Below, piece after piece: positions 3,309 through 38,512 of a stretch of DNA of 64,000 nucleotides. The stretch's first letter is position 1; each line of letters starts with the position of its first letter. Origin of the DNA: Candidatus Latescibacterota bacterium (GTDB lineage: Bacteria > Latescibacterota > UBA2968 > UBA8231); the NCBI GenBank assembly GCA_965203175.1, contig OZ241867.1:5056001-5120000 (forward strand). The letters are read 5' to 3'. The notes under the pieces are model-generated. The model worked only from the letters and a program-made list of their open reading frames with translations, was not told the DNA's origin and did no database searches. The translations under genes and the position numbers were made by a program.

Positions 3309-3356
3309 CCGTTTGCTGCGCCGCAAATGTTAGACGACAATAAGAGGAGATTTCCC

Positions 3357-6330: not shown

Positions 6331-6405
6331 TTGCATTGGGGGCTTCCGGGAGGAGACTTTTACAGGGATTGCTAGGCCGCTACATCTATATGAGAGGAGA
6401 TTTTC

Positions 6406-8266: not shown

Positions 8267-8367
8267 TTTAACGTGATGCCGCTTAACCCGAACTCACGTT
8301 GCATTAAGATGTAGGATTAAGCATGTCTTTCCCATGTCATTCATACCTATCAAAAAAGGAAATCATC

Positions 8368-9399: not shown

Positions 9400-9524
9400 C
9401 TAGTAGGACACGCACTACACGAAATACGCCTTTTGCAGGTGGGCTTGTCTGATAGATTTTTTGCAGGGTCAGGTGTATCTTATTCCATATCATTCACATT
9501 CTCACCAAAAGAAAGGAAATCGTC

Positions 9525-12149: not shown

Positions 12150-12169
12150 TGTTCCCTGGGCCGCTGTAC

Positions 12170-19559: not shown

Positions 19560-20470
19560 TTGCCGTCCCGTCCCAAAACGGCCTTCACCCGTTCCAGTTC
19601 CTCCCCCACCAAGCCTGTTCCATTGGACGCTCCGGCGTTCATTTCCAACTGCTCCATTTGCTTGGCCCCGGCGATGATGGTGGACACTACTGGATAACTC
19701 AGGAGGTACTGGAGGGCGGCCTGGGCCTGGCTGCGCCCCACCCGCTCGAGGAATCGGAGGTCTTCCACTTTCCGCAAAATGATGTGGGCGTCCACCACCG
19801 CCCCCTGTTCGTGCCAGCCACTGCCCGTGAAGGCGTCGGCCGCGTACTTGCCGCTTACCAAGCCCCGGGCCAAACCCTGTTTGACCACGACGCCCACATC
19901 CCGCTCGGCCACCAACCCGAACATGGCGTCCGCCATATCGTGGTAGAGCATGTGGAAGGTGGGCTGCAGCGAGTCAATCAGATCCTGTTCCAGCAGCCAG
20001 ACACCGGCGTCGATGTGGTTGACACTGGCCCCCCAGTAGCGAATCTTGCCCTGCTCCTTCAGGCTCTGCATGGTCTCCAGCCAATTGTTCTCCTGCAAAT
20101 GATGAAGCTGTGGACTGTGCAGTTGGTACACATCGATATAATCCGTCTGCAGCCGGCGCAAACTCGCCTCTACCGCCTCTTCAATATGCCCGGGAGAAAT
20201 ATCTCGTCCCTCTCGGGGGATGACACTGCCGACCTTGGTCGCCAGAATCATCCGGTCGCGGCGTCCCTTCAGCGCCTTTCCCAATATGACCTCACTCCTC
20301 CCTTCCTGGTACACGTCCGCTGTATCGACGCAATTGATGCCCAGTTCCATGGCCCGATACACCATGGCGATGTGCTCGGACTCGGTCAGCTCCTGCCGGC
20401 CCAGCATATTGGTACCATAGCCGATTTCGGACACCTTTAGTTCAGTCCTGCCCAATCTTCGGTAGTGCAT
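19547..20470 (-). CDS. Aldo/keto reductase
   Basis: YRRLGRT.LKVSEIGYG, DTADVY, ATK, SLRRLQTDYIDVYQLH and GKIRYWG.S. Confidence 0.9.
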   Translation of the reverse strand: MHYRRLGRTELKVSEIGYGTNMLGRQELTESEHIAMVYRAMELGINCVDTADVYQEGRSEVILGKALKGRRDRMILATKVGSVIPREGRDISPGHIEEAVEASLRRLQTDYIDVYQLHSPQLHHLQENNWLETMQSLKEQGKIRYWGASVNHIDAGVWLLEQDLIDSLQPTFHMLYHDMADAMFGLVAERDVGVVVKQGLARGLVSGKYAADAFTGSGWHEQGAVVDAHIILRKVEDLRFLERVGRSQAQAALQYLLSYPVVSTIIAGAKQMEQLEMNAGASNGTGLVGEELERVKAVLGRDGNQTR

Positions 20471-20481
20471 ATTCACCTCGC

Positions 20482-22443
20482 TCAGAAATAGACTAGAATA
20501 TTTCCCTGCATACCCGTCGAACTATCAATTAGAAACCACGCACCGCCCGCAGCCACATTGCCCAGAACCAATCCTAGGAAAAATGGCTGAATTCGTCTGT
20601 ACAATCCAGGCCCCCCGTACTTCAAAACCATGCTCTTGAAGAACCACACCAAGAAGACGCTCACCCAGATCTGGTTCGTAACCCAAGTTGTGGCGATGGG
20701 AAAGCCGACCGGATGCAGCGGCCACCACAAAAAGTAGTGCCGCGCCAGCATCAGCAACACCATGACCCCGCCACCCACGGCCACGTAAAACCACCCCTCC
20801 CAGTTCACCGCCATCGGGTTGGCGATCCATCCCGCTACATCTTGAAAGGGCTTTTGCGACCCCACGAAGAAGTACTGGTTCAGGTTGATGCCGCCGTAGG
20901 TATAAGCCTGGCGGAGGAGGTACCAGGTCGAGCCGACCAAACTGATGACCACGGCCCATACCATCGCCCAGAACAGCCGCGCTCCACCACCCTGCGCGTG
21001 CAGTTCCCCGTCTAGCTTTAGCCCGTTGGCGCACGCGGCCATGGCGAAAATGCGCACCTTCAAAATCCACGCGTACGTCATGCCCAGCGCCGCCAAGCCC
21101 TCCGCGCCGATAGCCGTGGTTCCCACCGTGGAAGTCATAAAGGCCTGTGGATAAATCGGCGCCCGGATGGTCGCCAAGCCCGCCTCAGCCACAAAGCGGC
21201 TCAACCCCACGAATAGGACGAAGACCACGAACAAAAACCAAGGCACCAACCAACCCGGCAGTCCCGACAGGGTCAGCCACACGCCTAGGATAGCCAAGCC
21301 GATAATCGTCCCAAACACCGCGGTGCGATAGGAGAGCATTTCCCCAGAATCGTCCACTGTCGCGTCCCCTAGAAAAGCTTTGCGACACACGGCCCGCAGG
21401 TGATTGCGTCCCACCCATAGACTAAAGAGCACAAAGGCAATCAGGGCACCCATGCCCTCGTGGGCGGCAATCGCCTCCGAAGTGGCGTACCCGGTCAGTC
21501 GCTCTGTCATGGCAATGCCCAGGACGCTGAAAAGGCCCTGTTGAGCTGTGGTCAAAAGAAAAAAGACCCAGATGCTCAGGAGCACTTGCAGGTTGACGAA
21601 ATAAGCAAACCCCAAGGTCATAAAGCTGAGGGCGAGGCGCAGGCTCACTTGGTCGCGGAGCACGGGGATACTGGTGTCGAGGACTATCGCGGGGATGAAA
21701 TTGTAATAGCTGTGCAGAGCGTCGAGACTCAGCAGTGCGAATGGTATAGAAAACCCCAGCCACATGATGGGATTGCGGAAAAACGGCCGCATCAGCGAGC
21801 CGTCCTCCGCGATCATCTCCAAGGGCAGCTTCACCAGCGGATATACCAAGCGCTCGTGGTCGATCCACTGCCGCCGCAGAATGACCATCGTACACACCAT
21901 CACGAAACACAAGGTCAAAAAGAACAGCGCCCAGTAGCACAGCGGTTGTATCCACGCTCCCCACGGAATGGAGGCCCCGGCTGGCGCGCCCTCGAAAAAG
22001 TGCTGCACAGCCTCGCCATCTAACGGCGCGATCCACCCCTTCATGTACGGGTGGATCAGGTCCACCCAGTCGTTCTCGGGCGTGGCGTAGTAGAACACAC
22101 TGGCGATTTTGGGCACCATGTGCTCGACATAGCCCTCTGTCGGCACGGTAGCCGCCATCATCGCCATGATGAAGACGATCCCCATCTCGGCGCGGCTCAA
22201 CATCAGCCGTCGATGGACCAGACCGAGGAGGGGATTGACCAGACCTGCGAAGAGCGCAAAGACGAAAAAGGCGATGGGCACGCTGATATTGAGGGCCATC
22301 CACGAGGCGTTGATAAAGGTCGAGTGCAGCGCGCCGATCGCAGCACCCAGCGAGAGGACGCAGCCCCAAAAAAATGCCTTGCAACTCAGACCGGAGGATG
22401 CAGTTGGCGGTTTGGAATCCCGAGGCACCGGCTGCTGGCTCAT
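20482..22443 (-). CDS. Large multi-pass inner-membrane protein (DUF6785-like putative transporter), paralog B
   Basis: Start MSQQPV after GAGG. Long identical blocks are shared with 10206..12149 (e.g. ALHSTFINASWMALNISVPIA, ATVPTEGYVEHMVPKIASV). Confidence 0.7.
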   Translation of the reverse strand: MSQQPVPRDSKPPTASSGLSCKAFFWGCVLSLGAAIGALHSTFINASWMALNISVPIAFFVFALFAGLVNPLLGLVHRRLMLSRAEMGIVFIMAMMAATVPTEGYVEHMVPKIASVFYYATPENDWVDLIHPYMKGWIAPLDGEAVQHFFEGAPAGASIPWGAWIQPLCYWALFFLTLCFVMVCTMVILRRQWIDHERLVYPLVKLPLEMIAEDGSLMRPFFRNPIMWLGFSIPFALLSLDALHSYYNFIPAIVLDTSIPVLRDQVSLRLALSFMTLGFAYFVNLQVLLSIWVFFLLTTAQQGLFSVLGIAMTERLTGYATSEAIAAHEGMGALIAFVLFSLWVGRNHLRAVCRKAFLGDATVDDSGEMLSYRTAVFGTIIGLAILGVWLTLSGLPGWLVPWFLFVVFVLFVGLSRFVAEAGLATIRAPIYPQAFMTSTVGTTAIGAEGLAALGMTYAWILKVRIFAMAACANGLKLDGELHAQGGGARLFWAMVWAVVISLVGSTWYLLRQAYTYGGINLNQYFFVGSQKPFQDVAGWIANPMAVNWEGWFYVAVGGGVMVLLMLARHYFLWWPLHPVGFPIATTWVTNQIWVSVFLVWFFKSMVLKYGGPGLYRRIQPFFLGLVLGNVAAGGAWFLIDSSTGMQGNILVYF

Positions 22444-22453
22444 CGCATGGACC

Positions 22454-23221
22454 TCAGTTTTTAATGGGTTCTCGCTCTCCGCGGGGGTAGTAATAGCCAA
22501 TCTCGCGGTCAAAGGCGTACTCGATGTCGATCATTTCGATCGGTTCATCGCGGAAGTTAAAACGCAGGGCTATATCGCCGAGGCGCAGGCGCACTTTGCG
22601 GACCTCTGGATGGAGGTCTGCAAAGGCGAGGAAGCCTTCGACCTCCTGTCCGCTGAAGACCACCCCGCCAGGGTACAGCGTTCTGCTCAGCAAATCCTTC
22701 CGGCCTTGGAAAGTGGTGTAGAGTTGGCCGACATAACCGGTGATGTACTTGCGGTAGTACTCCTCCATATCGGTCTGGCTCAGCACTGGATAGCGGCGGC
22801 CGTTATCGCTGATGATACCGCTCTTTGCCGGATCGATCAGGATTTTCGGGTACTGATAGTTCTTGACTTTGAGCTGGAAGACGGTAAAGCGCCGGGGCGT
22901 CGTGCCCGTGGAGGGGTCGCGCCAATTGCCAAAGGTATAGGGGTTGGTCGATTCCGTGCCCTGGAGGGATTGAGCGGGGAACAGCCTGTTCAGTTCGCCG
23001 TCGGAAAACGGCCGCACCGATATCTCCAGCCGATCGGCCACATAGGTGACCGTCCCATCGTCGCTGACGATCATCCCAGCAGCTTGGCCCTCTTCATCGA
23101 GAGGACGCAGCGGGTCGGCGTAGTATTGATAGCCGTACCTACAGCTAGCAAGACCCAGCGCTAGGACGAGAATACACGCCCATCGTCTATAGCCAAAAGA
23201 AATCAAAGCGCGCATCGGCAA
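22454..23221 (-). CDS. Uncharacterised lipoprotein
   Basis: Hydrophobic stretch ending in LGLASC followed by a soluble beta-rich region. Tightly coupled in the operon. Confidence 0.65.
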   Translation of the reverse strand: MPMRALISFGYRRWACILVLALGLASCRYGYQYYADPLRPLDEEGQAAGMIVSDDGTVTYVADRLEISVRPFSDGELNRLFPAQSLQGTESTNPYTFGNWRDPSTGTTPRRFTVFQLKVKNYQYPKILIDPAKSGIISDNGRRYPVLSQTDMEEYYRKYITGYVGQLYTTFQGRKDLLSRTLYPGGVVFSGQEVEGFLAFADLHPEVRKVRLRLGDIALRFNFRDEPIEMIDIEYAFDREIGYYYPRGEREPIKN

Positions 23222-23230
23222 TGCCTTTTT

Positions 23231-25069
23231 CTAGTATGCTACGGCCACCGCGCCACCGCGAACCTGCGCGCCGACGGCGGCGTCCATTAAAACCCGATAA
23301 ATGTACACCCCCGGTGGTACTAGTCGCCCCGCCCCATCCCTACCGTCCCAGACTACGCGGCCGAAACCGCTGGACTGGGACATCGCTTGGCTCCAGACGA
23401 GACGGCCGGAGAGGTCATGGACTGCGAGTTCAACAGGAACGGGTACCGTGGCCTGGAACAGGTTATACGTGAACTCCGCCCAATCGTTCACGCCATCCCC
23501 GTTGGGCGTAAAGGGATTGGGATGGATCTTCACCTCAGCCAGCAACTCCCCCTGCTCCTTTGGGGAAAACCCGACGAGCAAATCCTCTGAATTGAGGTCA
23601 ATGTGCACATCGCCGGGAACAATTGGCTGGGGCATCTCGTCGCGTTTGCTGTTGAAAACTCGGCCCTCAAAGCGCGTGCCCGAGACAAAAACGCGGCAGT
23701 CGAAATCGACTTCGATTAGGATCGCATCCCGGTCGATCAAGCGCTCGGGAAAAGAGACGCGCAGGCGGTTTTCCTCCACTTCGGCGATAAAATCGTCCGA
23801 GCTTATGCCAGCGATCCGCACCTCTTGCACCACCGCGGCAGTAGGTGTGGCGATCTCCACTCCGTCGAAACCGGGGTCTCCAGGATCCACGCGCGGCCTC
23901 AGCGCATAGGTGAAGCGCACTAGTTCGCCCGGGGAGACGAGCGCGGGCCAGATCTCGCCGGCGACCTGCTCGACCAAAGGCGGAGAAAACTCAACCGAGA
24001 GGGAATCAATGCGGGAACGCGACAGCGGCAGCGCGCTGGCAAAGTCGATCTCAAACTGGAAATAGCGAGCAGGTTTGGGGGCGACCAAGGGTTCCCTCCC
24101 AGTGGACGGATAGGGCGCAGACCACGGAGTCCAATTTTCCGTATCGGCTACAATAGGGCCCCTCGCCTTGGGGTGCAGCGCGTCGTATGCGCTGCGCGAT
24201 ACGGCCTGTTGGCCGTTTTGTCCTATGCCCGTAAAGCTGAGGTAGATATTCGGATCGGGCGTCGAGCCGCTTCGCGTGCGAATCTGCAGGGCACTGCCGG
24301 GATCGTCCACCGCATCCCAAGTCATAGCCCCCAGAACGACCGGCTCGCCAAAGTCGATGATGTCGGATGTAAAGGTGGCTGAGGAGGCATATCCCCTGCC
24401 CCAGACCTCCACCTCGCTGAGTTGCCAGAGACGAGCACTGGGCAAGCTGATCGTATCGGACAGAGCCACATAGCGCACCAAGCGCGGCGGAATTTCGATG
24501 TGCGCTGTATCTCCCTCGGTCTGCTCCACCTCGGCTACCAGCTCCCACTCGCGCACGAACCAGTGCCAGTTTCTCTGCCTTTGGGGAAAGGCAACGGGCT
24601 GCTTGCCGTCTTGGATGAAAACTTGGAACCCTTCGATAAAGCGGAACTCAAGTCCTTCGACCGCCGAAAAACCAATGCGATCTACGCCGAATGGTGCCCC
24701 CAAATCGACGACTAGGACAACGGCGAAAAAGGGGTCGTTCTCGCGCGTATTGACGATATCGAGTTCGATGGGGGGCCAGCCACTCAAACGGTCGCCGTCC
24801 ACTACATTTTTCAGGCTCTCGAATTTCCGCCAAGTGTAGTTGGTCAGCACCCGCGCCGAGTCCAACTGGCGCAGGTTGAGGGCTAGGTTCTCGCCCGACA
24901 CTTCGAGCGGCTCTAGCCAGCCGGAACTCTGCTCGTCGCTCAACAACTCCAAGGTGCCGACGGTATTCCAGGGACGTTCCTGCCCGCCGACTGTCCAGAG
25001 GTCCACGGCTGTAGCCCGTACCCAAAGGCCCAAGACGAGGAACAGAGTAGCAGTGCGTCTTCTGGCCAT
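23231..25069 (-). CDS. Secreted protein with discoidin/galactose-binding-like region and C-terminal FlgD-Ig / T9SS type-B-like domain
   Basis: Signal peptide. VVDLG...LSEVEVWG, then PNPFTPNGDGVND...WDGRDGAGRLVPPGVYIYRV...VAVAY*. Confidence 0.7.
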   Translation of the reverse strand: MARRRTATLFLVLGLWVRATAVDLWTVGGQERPWNTVGTLELLSDEQSSGWLEPLEVSGENLALNLRQLDSARVLTNYTWRKFESLKNVVDGDRLSGWPPIELDIVNTRENDPFFAVVLVVDLGAPFGVDRIGFSAVEGLEFRFIEGFQVFIQDGKQPVAFPQRQRNWHWFVREWELVAEVEQTEGDTAHIEIPPRLVRYVALSDTISLPSARLWQLSEVEVWGRGYASSATFTSDIIDFGEPVVLGAMTWDAVDDPGSALQIRTRSGSTPDPNIYLSFTGIGQNGQQAVSRSAYDALHPKARGPIVADTENWTPWSAPYPSTGREPLVAPKPARYFQFEIDFASALPLSRSRIDSLSVEFSPPLVEQVAGEIWPALVSPGELVRFTYALRPRVDPGDPGFDGVEIATPTAAVVQEVRIAGISSDDFIAEVEENRLRVSFPERLIDRDAILIEVDFDCRVFVSGTRFEGRVFNSKRDEMPQPIVPGDVHIDLNSEDLLVGFSPKEQGELLAEVKIHPNPFTPNGDGVNDWAEFTYNLFQATVPVPVELAVHDLSGRLVWSQAMSQSSGFGRVVWDGRDGAGRLVPPGVYIYRVLMDAAVGAQVRGGAVAVAY

Positions 25070-27669
25070 CAGTCCAGTCCGGCGAATATGACGAGGAACG
25101 ATTCGACGCGGTTTTGTTCCCGGTCCTCAAAGCGCTGCTGCTGCACTTGCGTCCCCAAGTTTATGGTCACCTGATATCCGAGGTACGCCTGGGTAACGGA
25201 TAGCTGCAGCGCGCCGACCCAACCCCAAAAATCGAGCTGCGCTCCAGGTTTGTCGGCCCAATCCCAGAATTTGGTCAATTCCGTGCCGCCTTCCAGTTCG
25301 AGATTGGGCATCAACTGCACCGCCAGCGTCAGAAAGAGGATCTCAGACAGGTCGTTTTTGCTGCCCTCACTTTCCAGATAGGCGGTCTGGCGTCGGTACA
25401 TGCTCTTCAATTTGGGGTGGAATACCAGTGCTTCCGTGAGTTGGAAAGAGTAGTCGAGTTTGTGGATCAGTCCGAGGAAATGGGAATCGTCGATGATCTC
25501 CGGTTCTTCCCCGGGCCGGGTGAGCCGGGCGACATTGTCGCCGCGCTGAGCGAGGCCCTCGTATTTGACCTTGGCCGACGTGTTGAAGCGGCCCCAAGCC
25601 TGGTCGAAACCAATAAAAACCGAGTTGACGACCGCGTTTTGGGCCAGCATGGGGTCTTCAAAGGGAAATTCGCTCACGCCGAACGTACCCGGCGGCTGCG
25701 TCCAAAACAACTGGTCGTCAATGATGTTGTCTTCGACGAACTTGAGCTGGTAGAAAAAGCGGAATTGGCCCAACGCGACCCGGTCTTGCTGCATTTTGAA
25801 GAGCAGATAGGAGAAGCGACTGCGGCGATCGGCTGACAACAGCCACTGGTTTGAATAGCCTCCTAATAGCTGGACCCCGGGGAAGATATTGATGCCTAGG
25901 TATCCATTGTACCCTCGGTGGTCCCGTTGGAACGGATAGTCGGCCTCGTCGTCATCCTCAAAGCGGTCGATTAGGGTGTTGTTGTCCATGTCGATACCAA
26001 AGAGGAATTCGGGCGGATCCACGGTGTAGCGGAGGAAGGGTTCGTCGTAATCGGGTCGGGTGTTGTCGTTCTGGTTGAAATCCGAGATAAAATCGTTGTT
26101 CTCGTCCAAGCCGGGAAATATCCCGCCTCTGGGGCCGCCGGAGATGGACCGGCGCTGACTTTCGTTGGGTTGCTGGGCCCGGCGCCAGTCGGGAAAGCGA
26201 TCTTGGTCATCGTTGTCGTCGACAAATTCATACACGCCGCGCAGCTTGTTGGTGTAGTCGAGCTTGCCCTGCTGATCCTGGATGTACATAGACGTGGAGT
26301 AGTCCTGGTCCACGCTGAAAATTTCGCCGTACGCAAACCACGGATAGTACCGACTCGTAGTGCGCGCGGTCAGGTATCCAACTTGAGCGGTGTTTGCGGC
26401 CCGCACATGCCTTTCGAAATTCACATTGGGCAGGCGGCGCCACTGATTGTTGTTATTCCACTCGGCCATGATGTCGAGTCCGGCGACATCCTGGACCTCA
26501 AGCGTCAGACCGTAGATTTCGTTGGCCGTCGGCAGGCCGTAGTCAAAGCGGACGAGACGCTGGTTGGAGCCGTCTTGGACATTCCGCGCGGACTTAGCCA
26601 CGGGCAGGTACACGGGTTGGTCCGAGAAATCGGTCTGTAGGTTGGAAGTCACCTCCACCAAGTAATCATTGGCCAATACCAGTTCAAAGACTAGCTTGCG
26701 GATCAATTCGGGCTGGGCAAACGCGTAGGTCAGGACGATCTGCTCGGCTCCGTCGGCGACCAAGGCTCCGCGGCGCGGCGTGCCGCCCTCGACTAGGGGG
26801 ACAATATCGAGAGGTTCGGTGTCTGCATTCGCCAAGACGCGCTCGGAAAAGAGAATAGCGCCCCCCTTGCCGTCCTCCGGTGAATCGTCGCTGATGCGGA
26901 TTTGCACTTGGCGGATGACGTCGCGATTCTGCTCGGTCGTCAAGTTTCCCGCGCGGATCCCGGCCAGACTCAAATCCGGCGAGGTCCGCCCCAGATGGGC
27001 ATTGACGTACGTGCCACCCATCTGGACGAAATCCCCTATCTGCACCGTCGTCCTGAAGCCGAGCAAATTGTTGAAATCAGTGATCTTCGATTCGTTTACC
27101 TCTCCCCCTTCGAGCGCTATGGGCAGGTTGACCCGAGACATGAGCAAGGTCGCCGCGTATTTGTCCGACTGGAGATCGACCTGGACCCCATTGAAGGCTG
27201 GTTTGGAAAAAGTAAAAGGGGTCAGGGCCGTGCGGATCTCATCGCCGACCGTCACGGCAAAGTAGTACTGGCCCCTTTGCACCTGGGTCACAACCAGCCT
27301 GTTGAACCAAGAATTGAAGCGGCTGCTCTTGAGGATGTCGCTGCCAAAGGTCGTGGGCTGCTCCTGGGTCCAGCGGTAGATCTGCCAGCCCTCGGTCACG
27401 TAGTTCCCGTAGAGATCGTACCAGCGCGTGCCCTCCAGTTCGGTATCTACGTAGCGCTGGTAGGGAACTCTGGCGTAATTGGAATACTGCCACCAATCCC
27501 ACTTGTACTCGGCGTAGAGTTGCTGAGGGCGATACCACTTCTGGATAGTGGGATCAATGGCATCAAAAAAGGTCTGGGCCCCCGTCGGGTTCAGGGCCTG
27601 CGCCTGACACGCTGGCGGCACGGCCGCGAGCAAGGCCACGGTGATTGCGATGTATTTGCAGTAGGTCAC
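25069..27669 (-). CDS. Large secreted protein, probable outer-membrane beta-barrel with Asp-rich Ca-binding-like repeats
   Basis: A GTG start at 27669 gives a signal peptide (...LLAAVPPACQA). Amphipathic beta-strand pattern in the C-terminal third. DDNDDQD / DENND / DMDNN repeats. Confidence 0.55.
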   Translation of the reverse strand: MTYCKYIAITVALLAAVPPACQAQALNPTGAQTFFDAIDPTIQKWYRPQQLYAEYKWDWWQYSNYARVPYQRYVDTELEGTRWYDLYGNYVTEGWQIYRWTQEQPTTFGSDILKSSRFNSWFNRLVVTQVQRGQYYFAVTVGDEIRTALTPFTFSKPAFNGVQVDLQSDKYAATLLMSRVNLPIALEGGEVNESKITDFNNLLGFRTTVQIGDFVQMGGTYVNAHLGRTSPDLSLAGIRAGNLTTEQNRDVIRQVQIRISDDSPEDGKGGAILFSERVLANADTEPLDIVPLVEGGTPRRGALVADGAEQIVLTYAFAQPELIRKLVFELVLANDYLVEVTSNLQTDFSDQPVYLPVAKSARNVQDGSNQRLVRFDYGLPTANEIYGLTLEVQDVAGLDIMAEWNNNNQWRRLPNVNFERHVRAANTAQVGYLTARTTSRYYPWFAYGEIFSVDQDYSTSMYIQDQQGKLDYTNKLRGVYEFVDDNDDQDRFPDWRRAQQPNESQRRSISGGPRGGIFPGLDENNDFISDFNQNDNTRPDYDEPFLRYTVDPPEFLFGIDMDNNTLIDRFEDDDEADYPFQRDHRGYNGYLGINIFPGVQLLGGYSNQWLLSADRRSRFSYLLFKMQQDRVALGQFRFFYQLKFVEDNIIDDQLFWTQPPGTFGVSEFPFEDPMLAQNAVVNSVFIGFDQAWGRFNTSAKVKYEGLAQRGDNVARLTRPGEEPEIIDDSHFLGLIHKLDYSFQLTEALVFHPKLKSMYRRQTAYLESEGSKNDLSEILFLTLAVQLMPNLELEGGTELTKFWDWADKPGAQLDFWGWVGALQLSVTQAYLGYQVTINLGTQVQQQRFEDREQNRVESFLVIFAGLD

Positions 27670-27680
27670 AAAAAACCGCC

Positions 27681-30065
27681 TTAGTAGGCTACTCCGACGA
27701 GCCGTGTAAACTCCCTCGTCGGCTCGTCGCTGTCGATGCTCAGGCGAAACAGGTACACCCCAGGAGGCACCATATTGCCCGCCCAATCGCGGCCGTCCCA
27801 CAAAAGGACGTACTCCCCGCTCGACCCGGACTGGTCGCGCAGCCGAGCGACCAGTCGCCCCCCCAGATCGTACACGACCGCCCGAAGTTGGCGGGACGCC
27901 TCCAAGCCGACCAGCGCAAAGTGCACGGTCAACTGTTCGTTGCGCCCATCTCCGTTCGGCGTGATCACCGACGGCCTGATCGTCGGGGTGCGGAGACCGC
28001 TGCTGCCGGCCGGTAGGAAAACTCGCAGGTCGTCGCCTAGCTCGTCCGGGCTCGCATCCCCCGGATCAATCTGTTGCCAAGAGCCCGGCTCAGCCGAGCG
28101 CCGTACAAAACCCTCAAAGAGCGTGGCATTGAGGAAGACTTGGGTGGCGAAATTCACCTCGATCAGTTGCGCGGCCTGTACCGCCGTCGGCAGGGTGAGG
28201 ACCAGTGAGTCCGCCGCGGCCCGCACGGCAACGGGCTCTATTTCCTCGCGGTTTAGTTTCAGGCCCCGAAAGACAGGCTGGGTCGGAACGCGAATCAAAA
28301 TCTGGTCGAAACCGCGAGACCCAGACCCGAAACTAGGGCGGATGAAGTAGGAGAATTCTTCCGGCTGGCCCGGTGTAGCTACCCGAGGGACGATTTCGGC
28401 GACGATCTGTTCGGCCGCCGGGTCCGTGAATTCAAGCGCCACACTGGACAGAGCCGGAGCCCGCTGCGGATCATCGCTGATCAACTCCACTTGTATCTGG
28501 GCATAGCTGCGGGGGCTGGGCGATTGAAAGCGCGCACCCGAATACTCGTAGGGCAAGCTCCACGGACTCCATCCCGCGCCTGGGATGAGTTCGACGGTGG
28601 GCTCTTTCTCGCGTTTGAAGGGCGGCAGCTTGTTCCAGGCCTTTTCAGTGTATTCATTGCCCTCCTTGTCGAAGTAGTGCAGTTTCTCGCCTAGCTCATT
28701 GCCCGTGCGCGTGCGCACCGCCAGTCTAGTAGCCGGCGGCGTCTCTCCGTTCCAGTGGATGGCCGTCAGGTTTTTGGCCCCGCCTAAGTCGATCAAGCCA
28801 GAGGTCAAGGTGACGCCCGGAATGAACCCCTCCCCAAAAGCCTGGATCTCCCGCACGGTTGAGACGCCCGTGCGCCGCTGATTGCGATTCGACCAGAACA
28901 GGTAGCGCACCTTGCGCGGGGGCAGGTGCTCTTCAAAGATGAAGCGCTCAGGAGCGGGATTGGCTTCAAGTTCGGCAAGCTCTTCCCAGACTAGGTCGTC
29001 GAAATCGATGAACTCGCCTGCGCCCGCGCCACTGCTGCGCATCCCGTCCGAGGCAAAGAGTTTGTACCCGAAGACCGGAACGTTGCGCTTGCCAGTGAAC
29101 TCAAAGGACGTGATGATGCGCACATGGTCTACCCAGAATAGCGTTCCCAAGTCTATGTTGACCCACCCCCACCGCTTGGGGTCGCCGAAGAAATAGCCTA
29201 GGGAATTCCAGCCCGTATTGTAATTCCCGTCTATGATATCCGAAGCAAAGGTCGGTGGCTCGCTTTCGTCGCCTCCGGCCGGTGCGATGAGCGCGCCGCC
29301 CCCCCGTTGCTCGCTGCCCAAGACGATATTGTCGCCCAAGGCACTGACCTCGATTTCGGCCAAGCGCGGATTTTCGGCTGTGCGCAGGGCACGAAACAGC
29401 ACAAAGCGCACGAACTGCCTAAAGGTCAGCTCGCCTCGGCCGCTCAATTTCACGTCCTGCGGCAGGAGCGGATAGGTGAGTTCGTACTCGGTATTGGGAC
29501 GGGTCGTCTCGGCCAACAAACTGTATTTCTTGAGTCCAGAGCCAAAATAGACGGCTTCCTCGCCCGTAGAGACAAATACCTGGAACATGCTGAAAGGATT
29601 GCCCGAGTGGGCGAATTTTACCGCGATCTCCGTGGCGGAGACGGCCCGGCCTAGATCCACTTCTACCCACCAATCCTCAAGGGGGGCACCAGCGGCAGGG
29701 GTCCAAAACGTCTCCTCGTCGCCGTCGAGAATGCGGCCGGCCATTCTAAGGTTCGTGCCCGCCCCGCGTATGCCGCCCAAGCGCTCTTCTCCGTCCCCAA
29801 AGTCGCCCAGCACGGAGAACTGGTCGACATTGAGCGCGGCATTAATCGATTTGCGGATGAAGACCGGGCTAACTCGGCCGTCCGGCGCAATCGCAATAGT
29901 CCCCTCGGGAGCGCTCCACGCGCGCCACTGCGACGAGCGACTGAAGCGAATTTCACCAGCCAGCGCATCCCAAGGCCAGAGGAGGAAAAGGCCAGCGCAA
30001 ACGACGAGCATCTTCCCTGTGGGGTACGAAATAGTTGAAGTTGCTTTTCTCCTAGTGTGCCCCAC
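27681..30065 (-). CDS. Secreted protein with two discoidin-like regions and C-terminal FlgD-Ig / T9SS type-B-like domain
   Basis: ILDGD..TFW...VEVDLG and IIDGN..TGW...IDLG, then ITPNGDGRNE...WDGRDWAGNMVPPGVYLFRL...VGVAY*. Paralog of 23231..25069. Confidence 0.7.
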   Translation of the reverse strand: MGHTRRKATSTISYPTGKMLVVCAGLFLLWPWDALAGEIRFSRSSQWRAWSAPEGTIAIAPDGRVSPVFIRKSINAALNVDQFSVLGDFGDGEERLGGIRGAGTNLRMAGRILDGDEETFWTPAAGAPLEDWWVEVDLGRAVSATEIAVKFAHSGNPFSMFQVFVSTGEEAVYFGSGLKKYSLLAETTRPNTEYELTYPLLPQDVKLSGRGELTFRQFVRFVLFRALRTAENPRLAEIEVSALGDNIVLGSEQRGGGALIAPAGGDESEPPTFASDIIDGNYNTGWNSLGYFFGDPKRWGWVNIDLGTLFWVDHVRIITSFEFTGKRNVPVFGYKLFASDGMRSSGAGAGEFIDFDDLVWEELAELEANPAPERFIFEEHLPPRKVRYLFWSNRNQRRTGVSTVREIQAFGEGFIPGVTLTSGLIDLGGAKNLTAIHWNGETPPATRLAVRTRTGNELGEKLHYFDKEGNEYTEKAWNKLPPFKREKEPTVELIPGAGWSPWSLPYEYSGARFQSPSPRSYAQIQVELISDDPQRAPALSSVALEFTDPAAEQIVAEIVPRVATPGQPEEFSYFIRPSFGSGSRGFDQILIRVPTQPVFRGLKLNREEIEPVAVRAAADSLVLTLPTAVQAAQLIEVNFATQVFLNATLFEGFVRRSAEPGSWQQIDPGDASPDELGDDLRVFLPAGSSGLRTPTIRPSVITPNGDGRNEQLTVHFALVGLEASRQLRAVVYDLGGRLVARLRDQSGSSGEYVLLWDGRDWAGNMVPPGVYLFRLSIDSDEPTREFTRLVGVAY

Positions 30066-30077
30066 TTTCTCGTCCTC

Positions 30078-31850
30078 TCAGTAGACCAAGGCCACAAGCT
30101 CGGCCCTTTCGTTGGCCCCCGTGGCCGAATCTACGCTTATGCGACACACGTACAACCCCGGTGCGGCTAAGGAGCCCTCGCTCGCTCTGCCGTCCCACTC
30201 CACCGCGTGAAAACCGCTACTCTGCATGCCATTGAAAAGCGCCCGGACTCGCCTCCCCGCAAGGTCGTATATAGCCGCCTCGACGGATACGGGCTGGACG
30301 AGTTTGAATATGCTGTACTGAATGCGCATTCGGTCGTTGAGCGAGTCGCCGTTGGGCGTAAAGGGGTTGGGTGCAATGGCCAAGTCGCCCAAAATGGTAC
30401 CGTCCAATTCCAACTCGACCGAAAAGTGATTGGTATTGAGATCGATACTGGCATCGCCGGGCAGGACATCTTGAGCTAGTTCACCAGACTGGCTGGCGAA
30501 CACGCGGGAGGAAAAAAGGGTGCCGAATTCGATCACCTTGGCAGCGAATTTCAGTTCCACCAGTACCCCGTCTTTTACGACGGGATGATTCGGAAAGCGC
30601 ACCGTCAGGAGAGAATCCGTCGCTTCCCAGGTAAAATCTTCGATCGGGGTACCACCTACAGTTAGTTCGCTCAGGCGGGCCCGGGTCGGCGTAGAAAGTT
30701 CCACCGCATCAAAGCCCGCATCGTCATCGAGGATGCGCGGCCGCATATGGTAGGTAAAGGGCGTGGTCTCCCCGGCGATGACGAATTTCGGCTCGATTTC
30801 GGCCACTACTTCGTGGGCCGGTGGCGGAGAGGAAATTTCAAAGGCGAGCGAATCCATCTGAGCCGCCGCGGCAAAGCGGTCGCTGACCAGTTCAACGGCA
30901 AACTGGAAATAGCGCCGGGGCGCCGGCGAGCGGATGCGCGAGCCACTCGTGGCGTGCGGTGGCGACCAAAGGCTCCAGTTTGCCAGATCGGGCCGTTTTA
31001 CCTGCTGGTTTTCCCTCAGGTTGTCGTACTGGTCTTTGCTTACTTCTTCGAGTGTAGCCCCTCGGCGCCGGTAGTAGAGGTAAGGATCGGGGGTCGAGCC
31101 ACTGCGGGTAGTCACCTCGACTGCGCCGCCCGCATCGGTCTGAGCGGCCCAAGTCAGCGCTCCCAGAGTGGCCAAGCCGCCTAAATCGATGACGTTGGAC
31201 GTGTACACCGCCTGCGGTGCAAAGCCCTGGCCATAGACTTCCAATTCGGCGATCTCCCAGGGCAGCGGACTGGTGAATATCAGCATGATCCACCGGACAT
31301 AGCGAGGTGCGATATCGACTGTGACCACCTCGCGTTCGTTGCGGGTCGTTCGGGCCGCCAAATCCCAGACTGGATCTCCCCGCAGCGGGTCGCTTTCGTC
31401 GCTGACGTACAGTTCGTATCCCCGCAAAAATCGGTCTCCCTGCTCAATGCGGGGATAGAACGAAACCTGATAGACTCCACTGAAAACCCGGCCCAGATCC
31501 AGAATGATCCGTCCCCCTATCTGTCTAGAGTGCTCAATGGGAAAAATCGTGGCGATTTTCCCGTCGATCAGCGCCCCCAAGCCGGTCTGGGGATCGGCCA
31601 GACCCCGGACCGAAGGCTGCGGGCTGTCGATATTGCCGCCTTCGGCCAAGGCCCGCAAACTGAGATTTTCGTCGGGCGATATGCGCTCGGGCTGTAGCCA
31701 ACCCGGACGACTCGCCAAGTCAACAGCTCGCACAGTCCCCCACTCTTGCCACGGACGCTCACTACCGCCAAAAACCAGTACTTCCCGGGCACTCGCGGGT
31801 TCGCCGATCAAGAGGGTAATCAGCAAGAGAGGCTTAAATAGAATGGTCAT
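30078..31850 (-). CDS. Secreted protein with discoidin-like region and C-terminal FlgD-Ig / T9SS type-B-like domain
   Basis: Start MTILFKPLL gives a signal peptide. PNPFTPNGDSLND...WDGR...PGLYVCRI...VALVY*. Third paralog. Confidence 0.7.
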   Translation of the reverse strand: MTILFKPLLLITLLIGEPASAREVLVFGGSERPWQEWGTVRAVDLASRPGWLQPERISPDENLSLRALAEGGNIDSPQPSVRGLADPQTGLGALIDGKIATIFPIEHSRQIGGRIILDLGRVFSGVYQVSFYPRIEQGDRFLRGYELYVSDESDPLRGDPVWDLAARTTRNEREVVTVDIAPRYVRWIMLIFTSPLPWEIAELEVYGQGFAPQAVYTSNVIDLGGLATLGALTWAAQTDAGGAVEVTTRSGSTPDPYLYYRRRGATLEEVSKDQYDNLRENQQVKRPDLANWSLWSPPHATSGSRIRSPAPRRYFQFAVELVSDRFAAAAQMDSLAFEISSPPPAHEVVAEIEPKFVIAGETTPFTYHMRPRILDDDAGFDAVELSTPTRARLSELTVGGTPIEDFTWEATDSLLTVRFPNHPVVKDGVLVELKFAAKVIEFGTLFSSRVFASQSGELAQDVLPGDASIDLNTNHFSVELELDGTILGDLAIAPNPFTPNGDSLNDRMRIQYSIFKLVQPVSVEAAIYDLAGRRVRALFNGMQSSGFHAVEWDGRASEGSLAAPGLYVCRISVDSATGANERAELVALVY

Positions 31851-31864
31851 GTGCCTATCGTAAC

Positions 31865-32266
31865 TCACTGTGCGGCAACCCGTATAATGAACCCACCTTC
31901 GACTCCTTCGGGTGCGATGCCAATGCGAATGATCTGGCCGGGGGCCACAAGGGCTGTCTGCGGGGGGAAGGACGACTCGCCTTGCGCGTTCAGGGGCGAA
32001 CCAGGCCAGGCTATTTCCACTTCGAATGGTGCCGAGGCATCTCGGAGCAGGCATTCGATCACCGCCGTGCTGTTGGCCTCGATCCGGGCGCTCTGCTGAC
32101 AGGCGGCAATAGAGATCTCCATCTCGTCGATAAATGAATTGACGACCCGGAGTTCAACCGCTCCTTCTCCAGCGCGGGTCGTCTCGGTAGAGAGCGGAAT
32201 CTCCTCTTCGCAGCCGCCCAGCATAGCCGCTGACGCCAAGACGAGAAAAACGCGCAGCATTCTCAC
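31865..32266 (-). CDS. Small lipoprotein
   Basis: Lipobox LGGC. VNSF..E.E.SIAAC...ECL is shared with the next gene. Confidence 0.65.
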   Translation of the reverse strand: MRMLRVFLVLASAAMLGGCEEEIPLSTETTRAGEGAVELRVVNSFIDEMEISIAACQQSARIEANSTAVIECLLRDASAPFEVEIAWPGSPLNAQGESSFPPQTALVAPGQIIRIGIAPEGVEGGFIIRVAAQ

Positions 32267-32277
32267 GGCGGCTCTGC

Positions 32278-32694
32278 TCAGTTCTGGCGGCGGCCGTCGA
32301 TCAGGATAATGAAGCCGCTACCCGTCCCTCCTGGAACGTTCCTGATTTCGACGACCTGCCCGTACGACACAGTGACGGTTTTTGGCGGAGGTGGAGCATA
32401 CCCTTGCCCAACGGGTGGATTCAGCCACACGACGACGACGTCGAAGGCGTTGATATCCTCCTCGATCAGGCACTCGACCGATTGAACTTGGTCGGACAAG
32501 AGGCGGAATTTCTGGAAGCAGGCGGCGATACTCACCTCTACCTCGCCGCGGAAGGAATTGACGAACTTGATGAAGCGGCTGGGCTCACCTTCCTCGATGT
32601 CCTTTGGCAGAGTCGCCAGATCGATCTCTTTTTCGCAGCCGCTCGACAGAAAGATGCCCGTGCCGAGCAGGAGCAAATGCACGCATCTCAGCAT
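32278..32694 (-). CDS. Small lipoprotein (paralog of 31865..32266)
   Basis: Lipobox LSSGC. Shared SIAAC/ECL/PPxT/GQ/GFII pattern. Confidence 0.65.
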   Translation of the reverse strand: MLRCVHLLLLGTGIFLSSGCEKEIDLATLPKDIEEGEPSRFIKFVNSFRGEVEVSIAACFQKFRLLSDQVQSVECLIEEDINAFDVVVVWLNPPVGQGYAPPPPKTVTVSYGQVVEIRNVPGGTGSGFIILIDGRRQN

Positions 32695-32715
32695 AGATCA
32701 CTCTTTCATACAATA

Positions 32716-32749
32716 CAGCGGTTCAGCCGGTATTCCGGCCGAACCGCTG
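32716..32749 (-). terminator. Strong intra-operon hairpin downstream of the first gene
   Basis: CAGCGGTTCAGCCGG-TATT-CCGGCCGAACCGCTG, a 15-bp stem (one position is a G-U pair on the minus-strand RNA). No clear U-tract. Confidence 0.55.
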
Positions 32750-32813
32750 GTACTAGAGCCCCGAGACACTCCCCCGCGCTGGGTGGAATCCCGGGATAGG
32801 TACAGATGAGCCG

Positions 32814-33725
32814 TTAGTCTGCGAAACTGGACTTTATGCGGGCCCAGGAAATCGACTCGACCGCGGTGGGGGCAGCGGCCTCGACATCGGGGTCAACGAT
32901 GAGGGTGAAGCTGTTCATGGAATCCCCGTTGCCTGTCGCTCCGCTCTCGTTCGAAGTGGCCCAAGCCCCGTCCCAACTGTCGCCGCCATCCCAGTCGTCG
33001 CCCTGGAACATGAGATGGGTTTTTGTGTTCTCGGTCAGATCCATGACCGTGCTGGTCTCGGCTCCGCCTTCGCCGGTCGATACGGCCGCGTCGAAGAATG
33101 AGAACAAGGTCATGCGCCATTCGTAGTTAATGGTCACATTTTCATCGCCGTGGCTCCACGGCTTGCCACTGGCCGGGCCAGTGGCGAAGACGAGGTGGGG
33201 CGGCTGATTGGCCCAGAACTGGGAGTAGCTGTCGCTGAAGCCCTGCAGGGCGAACACATCGGCATCGCCGGCCGCCTGAAACGTCCACTCTTGGCCGTTG
33301 CTGTACACCCCGTCTGGATCAATACCACCACCACTGTGATCGGGATCCAGCGCGAAGGTCCAGCCGTCGTCGCCGACCGTGCGGCTGCCGCGCAGCAAGT
33401 CGCGATCGTAGAAGTCGTCGAACGTGTTGATCGCGACCCAGAGCTGATTGCCCTCATCGACACCCGTCCACGCCACGCAGATGGTGACGTCGAAATCATT
33501 CAGGTCGAGCCCGTCCGGGCCGGCGCGGCTGAGCAACGCGTCCCGTTGAATGATGGCGTAGCTAGGGAACCAACTCCAGTCGGTGAGTTCCCCATCAATC
33601 TCCATTTGTTGGGCAACTCCGGCTGGAATGTGGATGGCGAAGTAATCCGGCGCATCGGCCGTGGCTGGCGCTGCCCCTAACAGGGCCGCCAAGCTCAGCA
33701 CTAGGATAAAAGAAAATAATCTCAT
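32814..33725 (-). CDS. Secreted acidic protein with CBM9/DOMON-like signature and TAVESISWARIK tail
   Basis: AGGAGG RBS before MRLFSFIL, signal peptide, and IDGELTDW...VAW...LWVAI..FDD pattern. First gene of the minus-strand operon. Confidence 0.6.
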   Translation of the reverse strand: MRLFSFILVLSLAALLGAAPATADAPDYFAIHIPAGVAQQMEIDGELTDWSWFPSYAIIQRDALLSRAGPDGLDLNDFDVTICVAWTGVDEGNQLWVAINTFDDFYDRDLLRGSRTVGDDGWTFALDPDHSGGGIDPDGVYSNGQEWTFQAAGDADVFALQGFSDSYSQFWANQPPHLVFATGPASGKPWSHGDENVTINYEWRMTLFSFFDAAVSTGEGGAETSTVMDLTENTKTHLMFQGDDWDGGDSWDGAWATSNESGATGNGDSMNSFTLIVDPDVEAAAPTAVESISWARIKSSFAD

Positions 33726-34054
33726 CTCGCTTCGACCTCCTTTGAGGAAGTGGGTATAGTCCATCCGCTACACGAGTGCGGATGGATCAGATGACTTTCC
33801 CTAAAGGGCCTGGAGTATAGCCCCAAGGGAAGCGGCTTAGGAAATCGACCTAGAGAAATATATGTTGATTATTTTCTGATACTTAAGTCATATTACGACG
33901 ATCATTACGAAGGCCGTACGTCCAGCTACTGCGAAATTTCTGTCCAATATATTTACTTTCAGCCTAGGATTCAACCAATATCTTGATGCACCTATTGGCC
34001 CATCCTACTTTTCTTGCGACATCTGTCTACCCACTCTGAATCGAGGAAGCGAAA

Positions 34055-35479
34055 ATGGGACTGGCTGTTGCGCCGGAGCACTGGATCTCGCCCCGGGCGC
34101 GGCTCGTACTGATGGTGGTTCTGCTGACGGCCTGCGCTCAAGACCACAAGGGAACGGCCGTGGCCACAGTTGGGACCGGGGAAATCACCGCCGAGGAACT
34201 TCGCCACTTTGTGCGCCGTCTCGCGCCGAGTCTGGTCAGTGAGGAAGCAGGACAGCGGGCCCGGGAGGACTACCTACAGACTTTGGTCGATCGGGAAATC
34301 GCGCTTCTCGAAGCCTATGAAAAAGGCTTGGACCAAGACCCCGATTTGCTCAAAGCACTCGACGAAAAAAAGAGAGAACACCTCCTCTCCCTCTATCGCG
34401 ACAAGGAGATCCTGCCCCAGATACAAGTGTCCGAGGAGGAGATCCGCCAGTTCTTCGACCGGCAGGATATGGCGCGGGAGCGCCGGACCACTGCCATTTT
34501 GGTGCGGACTCGGGAGCAAGCGCAGCAGATCCGAGCCCAACTCGAAACCGGGAGCGATTTCGGCGAGTTGGCCAGCAAGCATTCGCTCGACACTTGGTCG
34601 GCCCTGCGGGAAGGCGAGTTGGGATTTGTCACCCGGGCTGCTGCCGAACGGCTCTTGGGGATCCCCGTGGAGGTATTCGACACGCTTGGCACCGGCCAAG
34701 TATCGCCCCCTCTGCGCCGGGGCCGCAACTATCACCTGATCCGCTTTTTAGAAGACCGGCCCACAGATCTGCAAACTCACCGGGAGGCCATAAGGACGCA
34801 GTTGCAGGAAGAGAAGCAACGGGCCCTCGAAGAGGAAAAAGCAGACACTTTGGCACGCGAATTTAACTGGCAACGGGTCTTTGCGGGGACGACTCTGCTG
34901 AAGGATAAAGGCGCGGCCTTGGGAGAGAGCGGCAAGCTGCAGCTCACCGACGAAGAAAAGCGCGTACCACTCTTCACTTATGAGGGCGGGGCCATTTCTT
35001 TGGCAGACTATATGGCGGTGTTGCGCCAGCACAGGATCAGAGCGCCTCGGGCCTTGCTGGACAGCGTCTTTATCGGTTTGCTCGGACGCCGCTTTTTGCA
35101 GAAGCCCGCGCTCTTTGTAGCAGCCGCCGAGCGCCTCGGCCTCTCGGAAGATCCCAAGGTGGGAAAGTGGGTCGAGAAAACCAGACGGGAGTTGTTGGTC
35201 TGGGGTATAAGACAGCGGGAAGTCATTGACCAAATCGCCATTGACGAGGCAGATGTCAGACAATTCTACGAGGAAAACGGAGAAATGTTCCGGCGAGAAT
35301 CCTTTGAACAGGCCCGCAGAAGGGCGGAGGTCGCCCTGAGGAAGGCGCTGGAAAAAGAGCGTTTTGACGCGTGGATCGCCGATCTGCGCCAGCGCTATGG
35401 AGACCGCGTCAAAGTCTTCCCCGACCGCTTGGCGCAAGCCCTGCCGGAAACGCTGCTGGACAGCATCGCCAGAAATTAA
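34055..35479 (+). CDS. PpiC-type peptidyl-prolyl isomerase / SurA-PrsA-like lipoprotein chaperone
   Basis: Lipobox LLTAC, VATVG..EIT..EL, ILV...G.DFGELA.KHS.D...GELGF and GQVS.P...YHLI. Confidence 0.75.
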   Translation: MGLAVAPEHWISPRARLVLMVVLLTACAQDHKGTAVATVGTGEITAEELRHFVRRLAPSLVSEEAGQRAREDYLQTLVDREIALLEAYEKGLDQDPDLLKALDEKKREHLLSLYRDKEILPQIQVSEEEIRQFFDRQDMARERRTTAILVRTREQAQQIRAQLETGSDFGELASKHSLDTWSALREGELGFVTRAAAERLLGIPVEVFDTLGTGQVSPPLRRGRNYHLIRFLEDRPTDLQTHREAIRTQLQEEKQRALEEEKADTLAREFNWQRVFAGTTLLKDKGAALGESGKLQLTDEEKRVPLFTYEGGAISLADYMAVLRQHRIRAPRALLDSVFIGLLGRRFLQKPALFVAAAERLGLSEDPKVGKWVEKTRRELLVWGIRQREVIDQIAIDEADVRQFYEENGEMFRRESFEQARRRAEVALRKALEKERFDAWIADLRQRYGDRVKVFPDRLAQALPETLLDSIARN

Positions 35480-35508
35480 TACCATCTGCAAACCAAAAGG
35501 AGGTTCTC

Positions 35509-36850: not shown

Positions 36851-37011
36851 AGTGGACCTCCTTTTAGTGTGTGATCCATGCCCGAGGAGCATGGATCGAG
36901 TCCCGAAAATTTCATCTTCGATTCACCTAGAGCACCCATTTGGACACTCGGAAGCGAGATACGAAATTTGGCTCCTGTCCACAAGCCGCATCTCCAAGAG
37001 AGGAGATTTTC

Positions 37012-38430: not shown

Positions 38431-38512
38431 CCGCATTGTTTATCTGTGGAGCGCGACTTTTATAGGGGCCGCTAGGCCACTACATTCTGGATGATAATGA
38501 GAGGAGATTTAC

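Follow-up and report, generated by a model that had tools for sequence, protein, structure and literature searches.

Two described kinds of envelope system come closest to the gene cluster reported here, which occupies positions 19547-35479 of a 64,000-nucleotide stretch of DNA (the window; positions 5,056,001 to 5,120,000 of contig OZ241867.1, assembly GCA_965203175.1) from an uncultured marine Candidatus Latescibacterota bacterium. The first is the polysaccharide utilization locus (PUL) of Bacteroidota. PULs occur as many paralogous loci per genome and combine non-enzymatic surface binders of carbohydrate-binding-module (CBM) fold with a large barrel, lipoproteins and often an inner-membrane permease, with variable ligand-binding heads on conserved anchoring parts. 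The second is the type IX secretion system (T9SS), whose cargo may be encoded with a neighbouring partner of the PorP/SprF family, as in SprB/SprF. The Latescibacterota themselves occur widely in sediments, soils and sponges and, to our knowledge, include no cultured member.

The cluster resembles both systems and coincides with neither. It shares with PULs all the traits just listed, including repetition, here some 40 loci that amount to about 10% of the DNA. Unlike PULs, it has neither a SusC-type TonB-dependent transporter nor SusD, its binders are putative T9SS cargo rather than lipoproteins, and each locus has a private parvulin, no core carbohydrate-active enzyme and, in the flanks that were scanned, few regulators. 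With the cargo of T9SS it shares a C-terminal domain (CTD) of the CHU_C/FlgD_ig kind at the very end of the chain, the location of the cargo genes next to a barrel gene, and a genome that encodes SprA, PorU and a PorV-like protein. However, its barrel is 866 aa long and does not belong to the PorP/SprF family, and two to four cargo genes accompany each barrel gene.

We refer to the parts of the cluster as O (the barrel), F (three paralogous surface binding proteins), C (a secreted protein ending in a short tag), L and two small lipoproteins A and B, T (a polytopic inner-membrane protein) and P (the parvulin). We lean, tentatively, towards reading the cluster as one of about forty copies of a PUL-analogous, T9SS-dependent capture and uptake module that operates without SusC/SusD. 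As about a tenth of the genome is spent on it, the activity of this module would be central to the life of these bacteria. If the reading is right, the module would represent a second, independently built solution to the problem solved by SusC/SusD in Bacteroidota, the role of T9SS would extend to the assembly of nutrient-uptake complexes outside that phylum, and the F-O pair would serve as a simple genomic marker from which the substrate range of metagenome-assembled genomes (MAGs) of these bacteria could be predicted.

The searchable literature, outside of which lie subscription journals and supplements, yielded no account of the module, the O family or the tag, no papers on DUF6785 or DUF6784 (the two domains of T), and none on type IX secretion in Latescibacterota. 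Passages of an article on Latescibacteria (PMC4454575) report porins and standard transporters, not this module.

A module repeated about forty times in one genome

The genome is a single 6.58-Mb contig (estimated completeness 93%, contamination 6.5%). The ten proteins of the window cluster were compared by BLASTP (E <= 1e-5, at least 40% query coverage) with its 22,823 open reading frames (ORFs) of at least 80 aa, and matches lying at most 3 kb apart were chained into modules. Gene calling by longest ORF is crude, and the counts of modules and paralogues are therefore approximate. The genome encodes 168 paralogues of F, 62 of O, 56 of T, 37 of P, 22 of C and 18 of L, but only two of the small lipoproteins, A and B themselves. 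Forty modules contain O. All of these hold F, 36 include a long F of the B type defined by the second window paralogue (F-B), and 34 hold one protein of about 300 aa with the tag of C; P is found in 33, T in 19 and L in 14. Together, the modules span 9.9% of the genome.

The gene content of the neighbourhood was assessed in a zone within 6 kb of the modules, corresponding to 17.2% of the genome, by binomial tests that treat paralogues as independent and thus overstate significance. Several families are enriched in this zone: T (29 of 56 copies, p 3.6e-9), FG-GAP/ASPIC-UnbV proteins (30 of 59, at 23 of the 40 modules) and TPR proteins (26 of 40, at 22 of the 40 modules). The same zone holds 34 of the 37 P and 16 of the 18 L genes. 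ExbB and ExbD are not enriched (2/6 and 2/8, respectively). Of the 270 flank proteins, the 90 that belong to the first 14 modules were scanned with Pfam, together with 40 proteins from 11 other regions, nine of which are modules. Sugar-related functions found there include a PL4 lyase, a GH5 protein, two sulfatases, DHDPS-type aldolases, an FGGY kinase and parts of ABC, MFS and SSF transporters. The few regulators are a sigma-54 activator with a histidine kinase, an ECF-type sigma factor and a MerR-type protein.

One divergent module (L008/L119; G000:C1 2,788,001-2,808,400) consists of a CBM9_1-matching tag protein, a 1,005-aa O, L, a short F and a second, 978-aa O. It is preceded by a gene for a DUF4159 protein and followed by genes for a 1,090-aa TPR/YfiO-like protein, ExbB and ExbD. 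Relatives of the large TPR protein and of the DUF4159 protein each occur near 3 of the 40 modules.

Conservation in related genomes

Relatives of O are numerous. A word search returned 1,096 matches at E <= 0.001 among 7,999 scored candidates, called 'hypothetical' wherever they are named and mostly labelled Latescibacteria or Latescibacterota. An exhaustive profile search of 1.84 billion proteins recovered 1,035 representative clusters, 348 of them at E <= 1e-30. In a scan of species genomes, at least 599 relatives were confirmed, and 80 loci from other MAGs were kept for the analysis of gene content. O scores in 78 of these, F in 72, L in 54, P and C in 47 each and T in 28, many misses being on short contigs; the small lipoproteins were found in none. 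The preliminary description of the window had named a lack of conserved gene order in relatives as evidence against a module. The set is in fact conserved, with F directly beside O in 72 of the 80 loci, although the order of the genes can vary: two loci (L012 and L013) whose O is 55% identical carry the same gene set arranged as T L C F F O F P.

O is present in 95 of 151 sampled genomes of the phylum, including all 63 of the family to which the window belongs, and is absent from two other families (0/30 and 0/19). SprA was detected in 143 of the 151 genomes and is retained in these O-less families (29/30 and 19/19). Type IX secretion therefore predates the module and is more widespread.

Relatives of the whole cluster also appear in RNA-derived assemblies. 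Small parts of the stretch are represented in six metatranscriptomic runs, and contigs from four of these, each run belonging to a different study, are 90-99% identical to the window and cover 22-30 of the 30 bins of the interval 19500-35600. A single RNA-library contig of 3,220 nt spans 30331-33545, which includes the genes for F-a, both small lipoproteins and C. Word depth is highest over C in three of the four runs, but contig depth cannot rank genes and we make no claim about expression.

Organization of the window cluster

All ten genes of the preliminary description were found in place. As judged from the ORF listing and translations, they comprise a tightly packed minus-strand operon, transcribed in the order C, A, B, F-a, F-B, O, F-c, L and T, and a divergent gene for P (Table 1). 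An aldo-keto reductase gene follows T and probably belongs to the operon as well. The tight coupling noted previously holds throughout: neighbouring minus-strand genes are separated by at most 13 nt or overlap slightly, with the sole exception of 119 nt between C and small lipoprotein A. This gap contains a 15-bp hairpin, but the total of terminator-like sites in the pattern scan does not exceed that of shuffled controls. Likewise, matches to sigma-70-like promoters (8) are not above the shuffled controls (4.7 +/- 2.3). The start of C is probably at codon 14 (33725), since its close homologues are 303-304 aa long, and that of F-a was corrected from 31853 to 31850.

C, both small lipoproteins, O and L match no Pfam or NCBIfam model, and the genes correspond to none of the systems known, in line with the earlier label of a candidate undescribed module; family names are lacking for O, L, C and the tag. 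Neither were SusC, SusD or TonB genes visible at first sight, and this was borne out for the ten cluster proteins, none of which matches the SusC, SusD, Plug, TonB_dep_Rec, CarboxypepD_reg or TonB families of Pfam and NCBIfam. Elsewhere in the genome the TonB_dep_Rec model has 30 matches, 29 of them above cut-off, and classical TonB-dependent uptake therefore coexists with the module.

Table 1. Genes and other features of the window cluster, in order of position.
Feature	Position	Strand	Description	Basis or remark
Aldo-keto reductase	19547..20476	-	5 nt downstream of T, same strand; probably last operon gene	Aldo_ket_red 175.4 bits
T	20482..22512	-	polytopic inner-membrane protein, DUF6785 + DUF6784	Pfam; start possibly 22443
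L	22454..23221	-	255-aa lipoprotein, unnamed family	LASC lipobox
F-c (c-type, g7)	23231..25069	-	612 aa	AlphaFold2 model + CHU_C
O	25069..27669	-	866-aa predicted outer-membrane beta-barrel, undescribed family	AlphaFold2 model
F-B (B-type, g5)	27681..30065	-	794 aa, longer paralogue with extra N-terminal domain	F5_F8_type_C + FlgD_ig
F-a (a-type, g4)	30078..31850	-	590 aa, putative surface binding protein with T9SS-type CTD	FlgD_ig + paralogy
Small lipoprotein B	31865..32266	-	133 aa, paralogue of A	signal peptide, then Cys; paralogy by BLASTP
Small lipoprotein A	32278..32694	-	138 aa	signal peptide, then Cys
Hairpin	32716..32749	-	15 bp (11 G-C), in 119-nt gap after C	pattern scan only
C (g1)	32814..33764	-	secreted ~300-aa CBM9-like protein, first operon gene	ends in tag TAVESISWARIKSSFAD
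P	34055..35479	+	parvulin-type peptidyl-prolyl isomerase lipoprotein (SurA/PrsA-like), diverges from upstream end of operon	Rotamase models

Putative surface proteins with T9SS-type C-terminal domains

The three F proteins, all of which carry signal peptides, are paralogous far beyond chance (F-a versus F-c, E 6.6e-111; F-a versus F-B, E 4e-57). The sequence motifs they had been said to share are real and extend to other copies in the genome: in an alignment of 20 sequences, the three from the window and 17 from the same genome, W313, S314, W316, S317, P331 and Q338 are conserved in at least 90%, and P522, G524, D525, W574, G587, Y589 and Y612 are invariant. Conservation is uneven along the chain: mean identity is lowest in the head (23.6%) and highest in the CTD (36.0%).

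The AlphaFold2 model of F-c, built with 19 paralogues (pLDDT 82.4), consists of a series of beta-sandwiches. Residues 58-227 resemble CBM32 modules of glycosidases and fucolectins (Z 12-13.8, root-mean-square deviation 2.5-2.9 A over 120-134 residues). Tandem CBM32 pairs can be aligned with residues 55-363 (Z about 11), an Ig-like domain occupies residues 368-504, and residues 507-612 match the CTD of PorU (6za2_B; Z 13.7, 2.3 A over 99 residues, 23% identity) and that of PorZ (Z 10.8). No catalytic fold was found among the structural matches of this model. F-c is thus modelled as two CBM32/discoidin-like domains followed by an Ig-like domain and a T9SS-type CTD, and sugar binding by the discoidin-type domains remains putative. 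The previous assignment of all three paralogues as discoidin-like holds for F-B by Pfam, as the only one of the three to pass the F5_F8_type_C cut-off (36.2 bits against 28.2), and for F-c by its model; F-a, which stays below this cut-off, remains a candidate.

A T9SS-type CTD on the three paralogues agrees with the PorU match of the F-c model and with Pfam, at a cut-off of 27 bits in each case: FlgD_ig matches F-a with 35.2 bits and F-B with 31.6, and CHU_C matches F-c with 31.8 (in F-a it reaches only 23 bits). In contrast, the CTDs cannot be assigned specifically to type B, as CHU_C is over its cut-off in F-c alone, F-a and F-B match FlgD_ig instead, and the NCBIfam models of type A (TIGR04183) and type B (TIGR04131), which stay below their cut-offs here, unlike in known T9SS cargo, give only 16-18 bits.

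The genome offers part of the corresponding machinery. SprA_N is matched with 82 bits, above its cut-off, a full-length PorU reaches 632.5 bits (cut-off 420), and the gene adjoining that of PorU encodes a PorV-like protein (Pfam PorV, 54.2 bits against 27). One may then ask whether O is simply the functional counterpart of PorP/SprF, receiving and holding the CTD of neighbouring T9SS cargo without any role in transport. The CHU_C match of F-c (CHU_C being the type-B model), the position of F beside O in related loci and the lack of a PorP/SprF match in the genome would fit such a role, as would the fact that the closest solved CTDs belong to PorU and PorZ, which stay bound to their barrel partners and are not known to be cleaved. 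Yet about 231 first-look candidates in the genome, 51 of them scored, match the CTD part of the PorU model, which makes this domain a general signal rather than one specific for O. Moreover, the controls of the PorP search were themselves silent, O bears no likeness to barrels of PorP or PorV size, and lineages that lack O keep SprA, so that T9SS works there without it. We consider this explanation improbable.

A giant barrel of an undescribed family

The preliminary description had recognized in O a probable barrel with Asp-rich repeats, and structure prediction agrees with it on both counts. The AlphaFold2 model, built with 56 homologues (pLDDT 73.8, pTM 0.71), shows a barrel of roughly 26 strands, with a beta-sandwich inserted at about 254-360 within the barrel sequence and an Asp-rich segment at about 461-583, modelled with low confidence, that holds four D-x-[DN]-x-[DN] motifs. 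The segments that are modelled least confidently are the most conserved across the 56 homologues: mean pairwise identity is 62.7% in the Asp-rich segment 461-583 (about 25921-26289 of the window) and 56.4% in the N-terminal segment 33-85 (about 27415-27573), against 39.2% in the C-terminal barrel. This combination suggests that the two segments are sites for the binding of a partner or of metal.

O has no Pfam match even at E <= 10 and no sequence match in the PDB (best E 1.5). The top Foldseek matches of its model are MtrB, SlpA, FimD and LptD, with TM-scores of only about 0.2-0.3, and the longest VIA-align alignments are with SlpA (Z 14.0 over 444 residues) and FimD (Z 12.4-12.5 over 343-350 residues). 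Since small porins reach the same Z as SlpA, this likeness is that of barrels in general. O falls within the size class of SlpA of Deinococcus, FimD, LptD and MtrB, but shows no sequence kinship to them and lacks an SLH domain, usher domains, an LptE partner or a cytochrome partner. O is thus modelled as a very large barrel of the outer membrane, and its family is undescribed; this family and the tag of C are each directly testable. Longer fused forms of O (1,517-4,330 aa) were searched and none was found, which is weak evidence. Complex prediction of O (82-866) with L (40-250) gave an ipSAE of 0.00 in two runs and speaks neither for nor against binding.

Alternatively, O could be a dedicated pore for secretion or assembly, either usher-like or of the polymer-export kind, with P as a chaperone and F and C as substrates, or with the flanking TPR proteins as a scaffold, as in alginate or cellulose export. 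The FimD alignment could be read in this sense, and so could the inserted beta-sandwich, as the plug of ushers is inserted in the same manner within the barrel. Further hints are the frequency of the private chaperone-like P among the modules, the enrichment of TPR proteins around them, and a weak match of P to an EpsD-family isomerase model (69.1 bits, below the cut-off of 108.9). Nevertheless, the F proteins carry a T9SS CTD in a genome with T9SS, the ten window proteins have no Usher or PapD match in Pfam, no glycosyltransferase or polymerase was found by Pfam scans in the modules examined, and unrelated barrels score at least as well as FimD. An export pore of this type therefore seems to us very improbable.

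Another large outer-membrane family is represented in the window (60625-62859, plus strand) by a 744-aa protein in which an N-terminal CBM9_1 domain is combined with DUF5916; no kinship to O is detectable. The idea that C and O could be a split form of this CBM9 plus DUF5916 architecture found no support (hhalign of the O profile against this protein, probability 0.1%).

Protein C and its C-terminal tag

C had been described as CBM9-like with an SWxxxK tail. The first part is true only indirectly. C has no Pfam match of its own; CBM9_1 (PF06452) is matched weakly by two of seven members of its family (best E 0.0039). The profile of this family does, however, match a tag-bearing paralogue (hhalign probability 96.9%, E 2e-10) that is itself CBM9_1-positive (E 8.4e-10).

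The tail is real and recurrent. It follows the pattern [ST]W[GAS]x[IVL]K, is usually preceded by TAVE (TAVExxSWGxIK), and is covered by no model of Pfam or NCBIfam. Within the last 18 residues the pattern occurs in 88 of the 22,823 genome ORFs, whereas a control window placed 42-60 residues before the terminus gives one; for the 80 related loci the figures are 64 of 4,560 ORFs and none, respectively. One tag bearer, with a median length of 308 aa, is present in 61 of these 80 loci. No transmembrane segment follows the tag.

About a dozen genes in tandem, for proteins of about 190-370 aa that all end in the tag (...SVEAQSWGRIKSLLS...), lie at about 1,361,500-1,382,200 of G000:C1 without any O or F in the vicinity. 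Proteins outside the module can therefore carry the tag as well.

Lipoproteins, chaperone and permease

The earlier statement that two lipoproteins of the cluster are paralogous is supported by the comparison of A and B (34% identity, E 4e-21). That of a further lipoprotein followed by a large multi-membrane-spanning protein fits L, with its lipobox, and T. A match of L to the designed repeat protein Tako8, its only PDB match, is an artefact of eight weak repeats.

P is indeed a peptidyl-prolyl isomerase, as proposed, with Rotamase_2 (45.2 bits), Rotamase (42.7 bits) and Rotamase_3 (29.8 bits) all above their cut-offs and a lipobox, LTAC, at residues 24-27. SurA_N_3 remains below its cut-off (16.8 bits against 27.2), and no NCBIfam equivalog reaches its own.

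T, with about 14-16 hydrophobic segments, matches DUF6785 (395.2 bits, cut-off 25) and DUF6784 (104.1 bits, cut-off 26.4). DUF6785 has 57 matches in the genome, 56 above cut-off. T is polytopic and similar in length to the OPT permeases of oligopeptides and metal chelates, but the window T has no OPT match at E <= 10 and no sequence match in the PDB. The OPT model (PF03169) matches a DUF6785 paralogue below cut-off (E 0.005, 16.4 bits), and the OPT family is annotated on 11% of the members of a related Atlas cluster. Kinship of T to OPT transporters is thus distant at best.

A second DUF6785/DUF6784 gene, 73% identical to T, lies in the window outside the modules, directly downstream of an FG-GAP/ASPIC-UnbV gene (10206-12251 and 12170-13957, both minus strand). 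This pair neighbours an Nramp-like gene and a gene of the FGE-sulfatase family. T shows no special tie to FG-GAP/ASPIC genes.

Proposed function

We infer the surface location of the module, the formation of a complex, its ligand and transport through O and T from the nature of the parts. In this mechanism, T9SS would export the F proteins and leave them attached to the cell surface, with their heads binding a glycan or glycoconjugate specific to each module. C would join them there, positioned by its own tag, TAVExxSWGxIK. O would be the outer-membrane conduit or platform of the complex, P would aid the folding of O and/or F in the periplasm, and L would act as an accessory lipoprotein. Finally, T would bring captured material or its fragments through the inner membrane and hand it to enzymes of the cytoplasm, for instance the co-transcribed reductase.

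This scheme develops the suggestion, made in the preliminary description, of a PUL-analogous complex for surface binding and import that feeds adjacent catabolic enzymes. A coherent, conserved envelope module has stood up to analysis, and the analogy with PULs is strengthened by its roughly fortyfold repetition and by the CBM32-like head of F; import via O is the part that stays conditional. As for adjacent catabolic enzymes, the suggestion holds in this cluster for the co-oriented reductase alone, and across the genome sulfatases (10 of 46), MR/MLE proteins (6 of 52) and PhyH proteins (3 of 45) are not enriched near modules.

The latter observation is one of several that weigh against capture and uptake. 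The core module contains no glycoside hydrolase, lyase or peptidase. T is present in fewer than half of the modules (19 of 40), and 27 of its 56 copies lie elsewhere, so it may be a general permease. O has no homology to a plug or TonB box, which leaves the gating and energising of so large a barrel unexplained, and contact between the parts of the module is itself something we infer. With regard to secretion, SprA, PorU and a PorV-like protein answer part of the earlier question about T9SS genes, but the models of GldL, GldM and PorP/SprF (PF11751, three candidates scored) have no match in the genome, the control genomes being equally silent. The RNA evidence, lastly, consists of contigs of close relatives, and DNA may be present in RNA libraries.

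Some of these points would be at home in the main rival explanation, a platform for surface display or adhesion without import. O would then merely anchor F and C, the forty modules would form a repertoire of lectin-like adhesins for host tissue, particles or other cells, and T and the reductase would be unrelated neighbours. The F proteins are lectin-like and non-enzymatic, there is no degradative enzyme in the core, and T is missing from many modules. Also, among long structural alignments of O the best is that with SlpA, a barrel by which a surface layer is fastened to the outer membrane, and the DNA datasets that hold the stretch are labelled as sponge and marine metagenomes. On the other hand, the SlpA match is generic, T and the reductase share an operon here with gaps of 13 nt or less, and T is enriched near modules. 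Furthermore, a mere anchor would leave a barrel of about 26 strands unexplained, attachment mediated by PorU being available. We regard display without import as unlikely, though a serious competitor.

To return to capture and uptake, a bolder form can be envisaged, in which Latescibacterota independently invented the PUL principle with non-homologous parts. The result would be a TonB-independent, T9SS-fed utilisome built on O, with three ordered lectin-like subunits, a private parvulin and a C-terminal sorting or docking tag on C, shared by the other tagged proteins of the genome and perhaps read by the TPR proteins adjacent to modules. We find this extension attractive but rather doubtful.

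Other features of the window

Three regions of the window (3327-7890, 36940-39979 and 62884-63885) encode five paralogous proteins of about 475-496 aa and one of 333 aa with a C-terminal AhpC/TSA-redoxin domain, the N-terminal ~320 aa being without assignment. Four neighbouring genes (601-2715 and 8323-10094) encode proteins whose sole domains are Cache-type sensors; no output domain was detected in them. Finally, a single 3,402-aa type I polyketide synthase (KS-AT-DH-MT-ER-KR-ACP-KS...) is encoded at 47134-57342 on the minus strand, with genes for a 4'-phosphopantetheinyl transferase and an alpha/beta hydrolase downstream of it.

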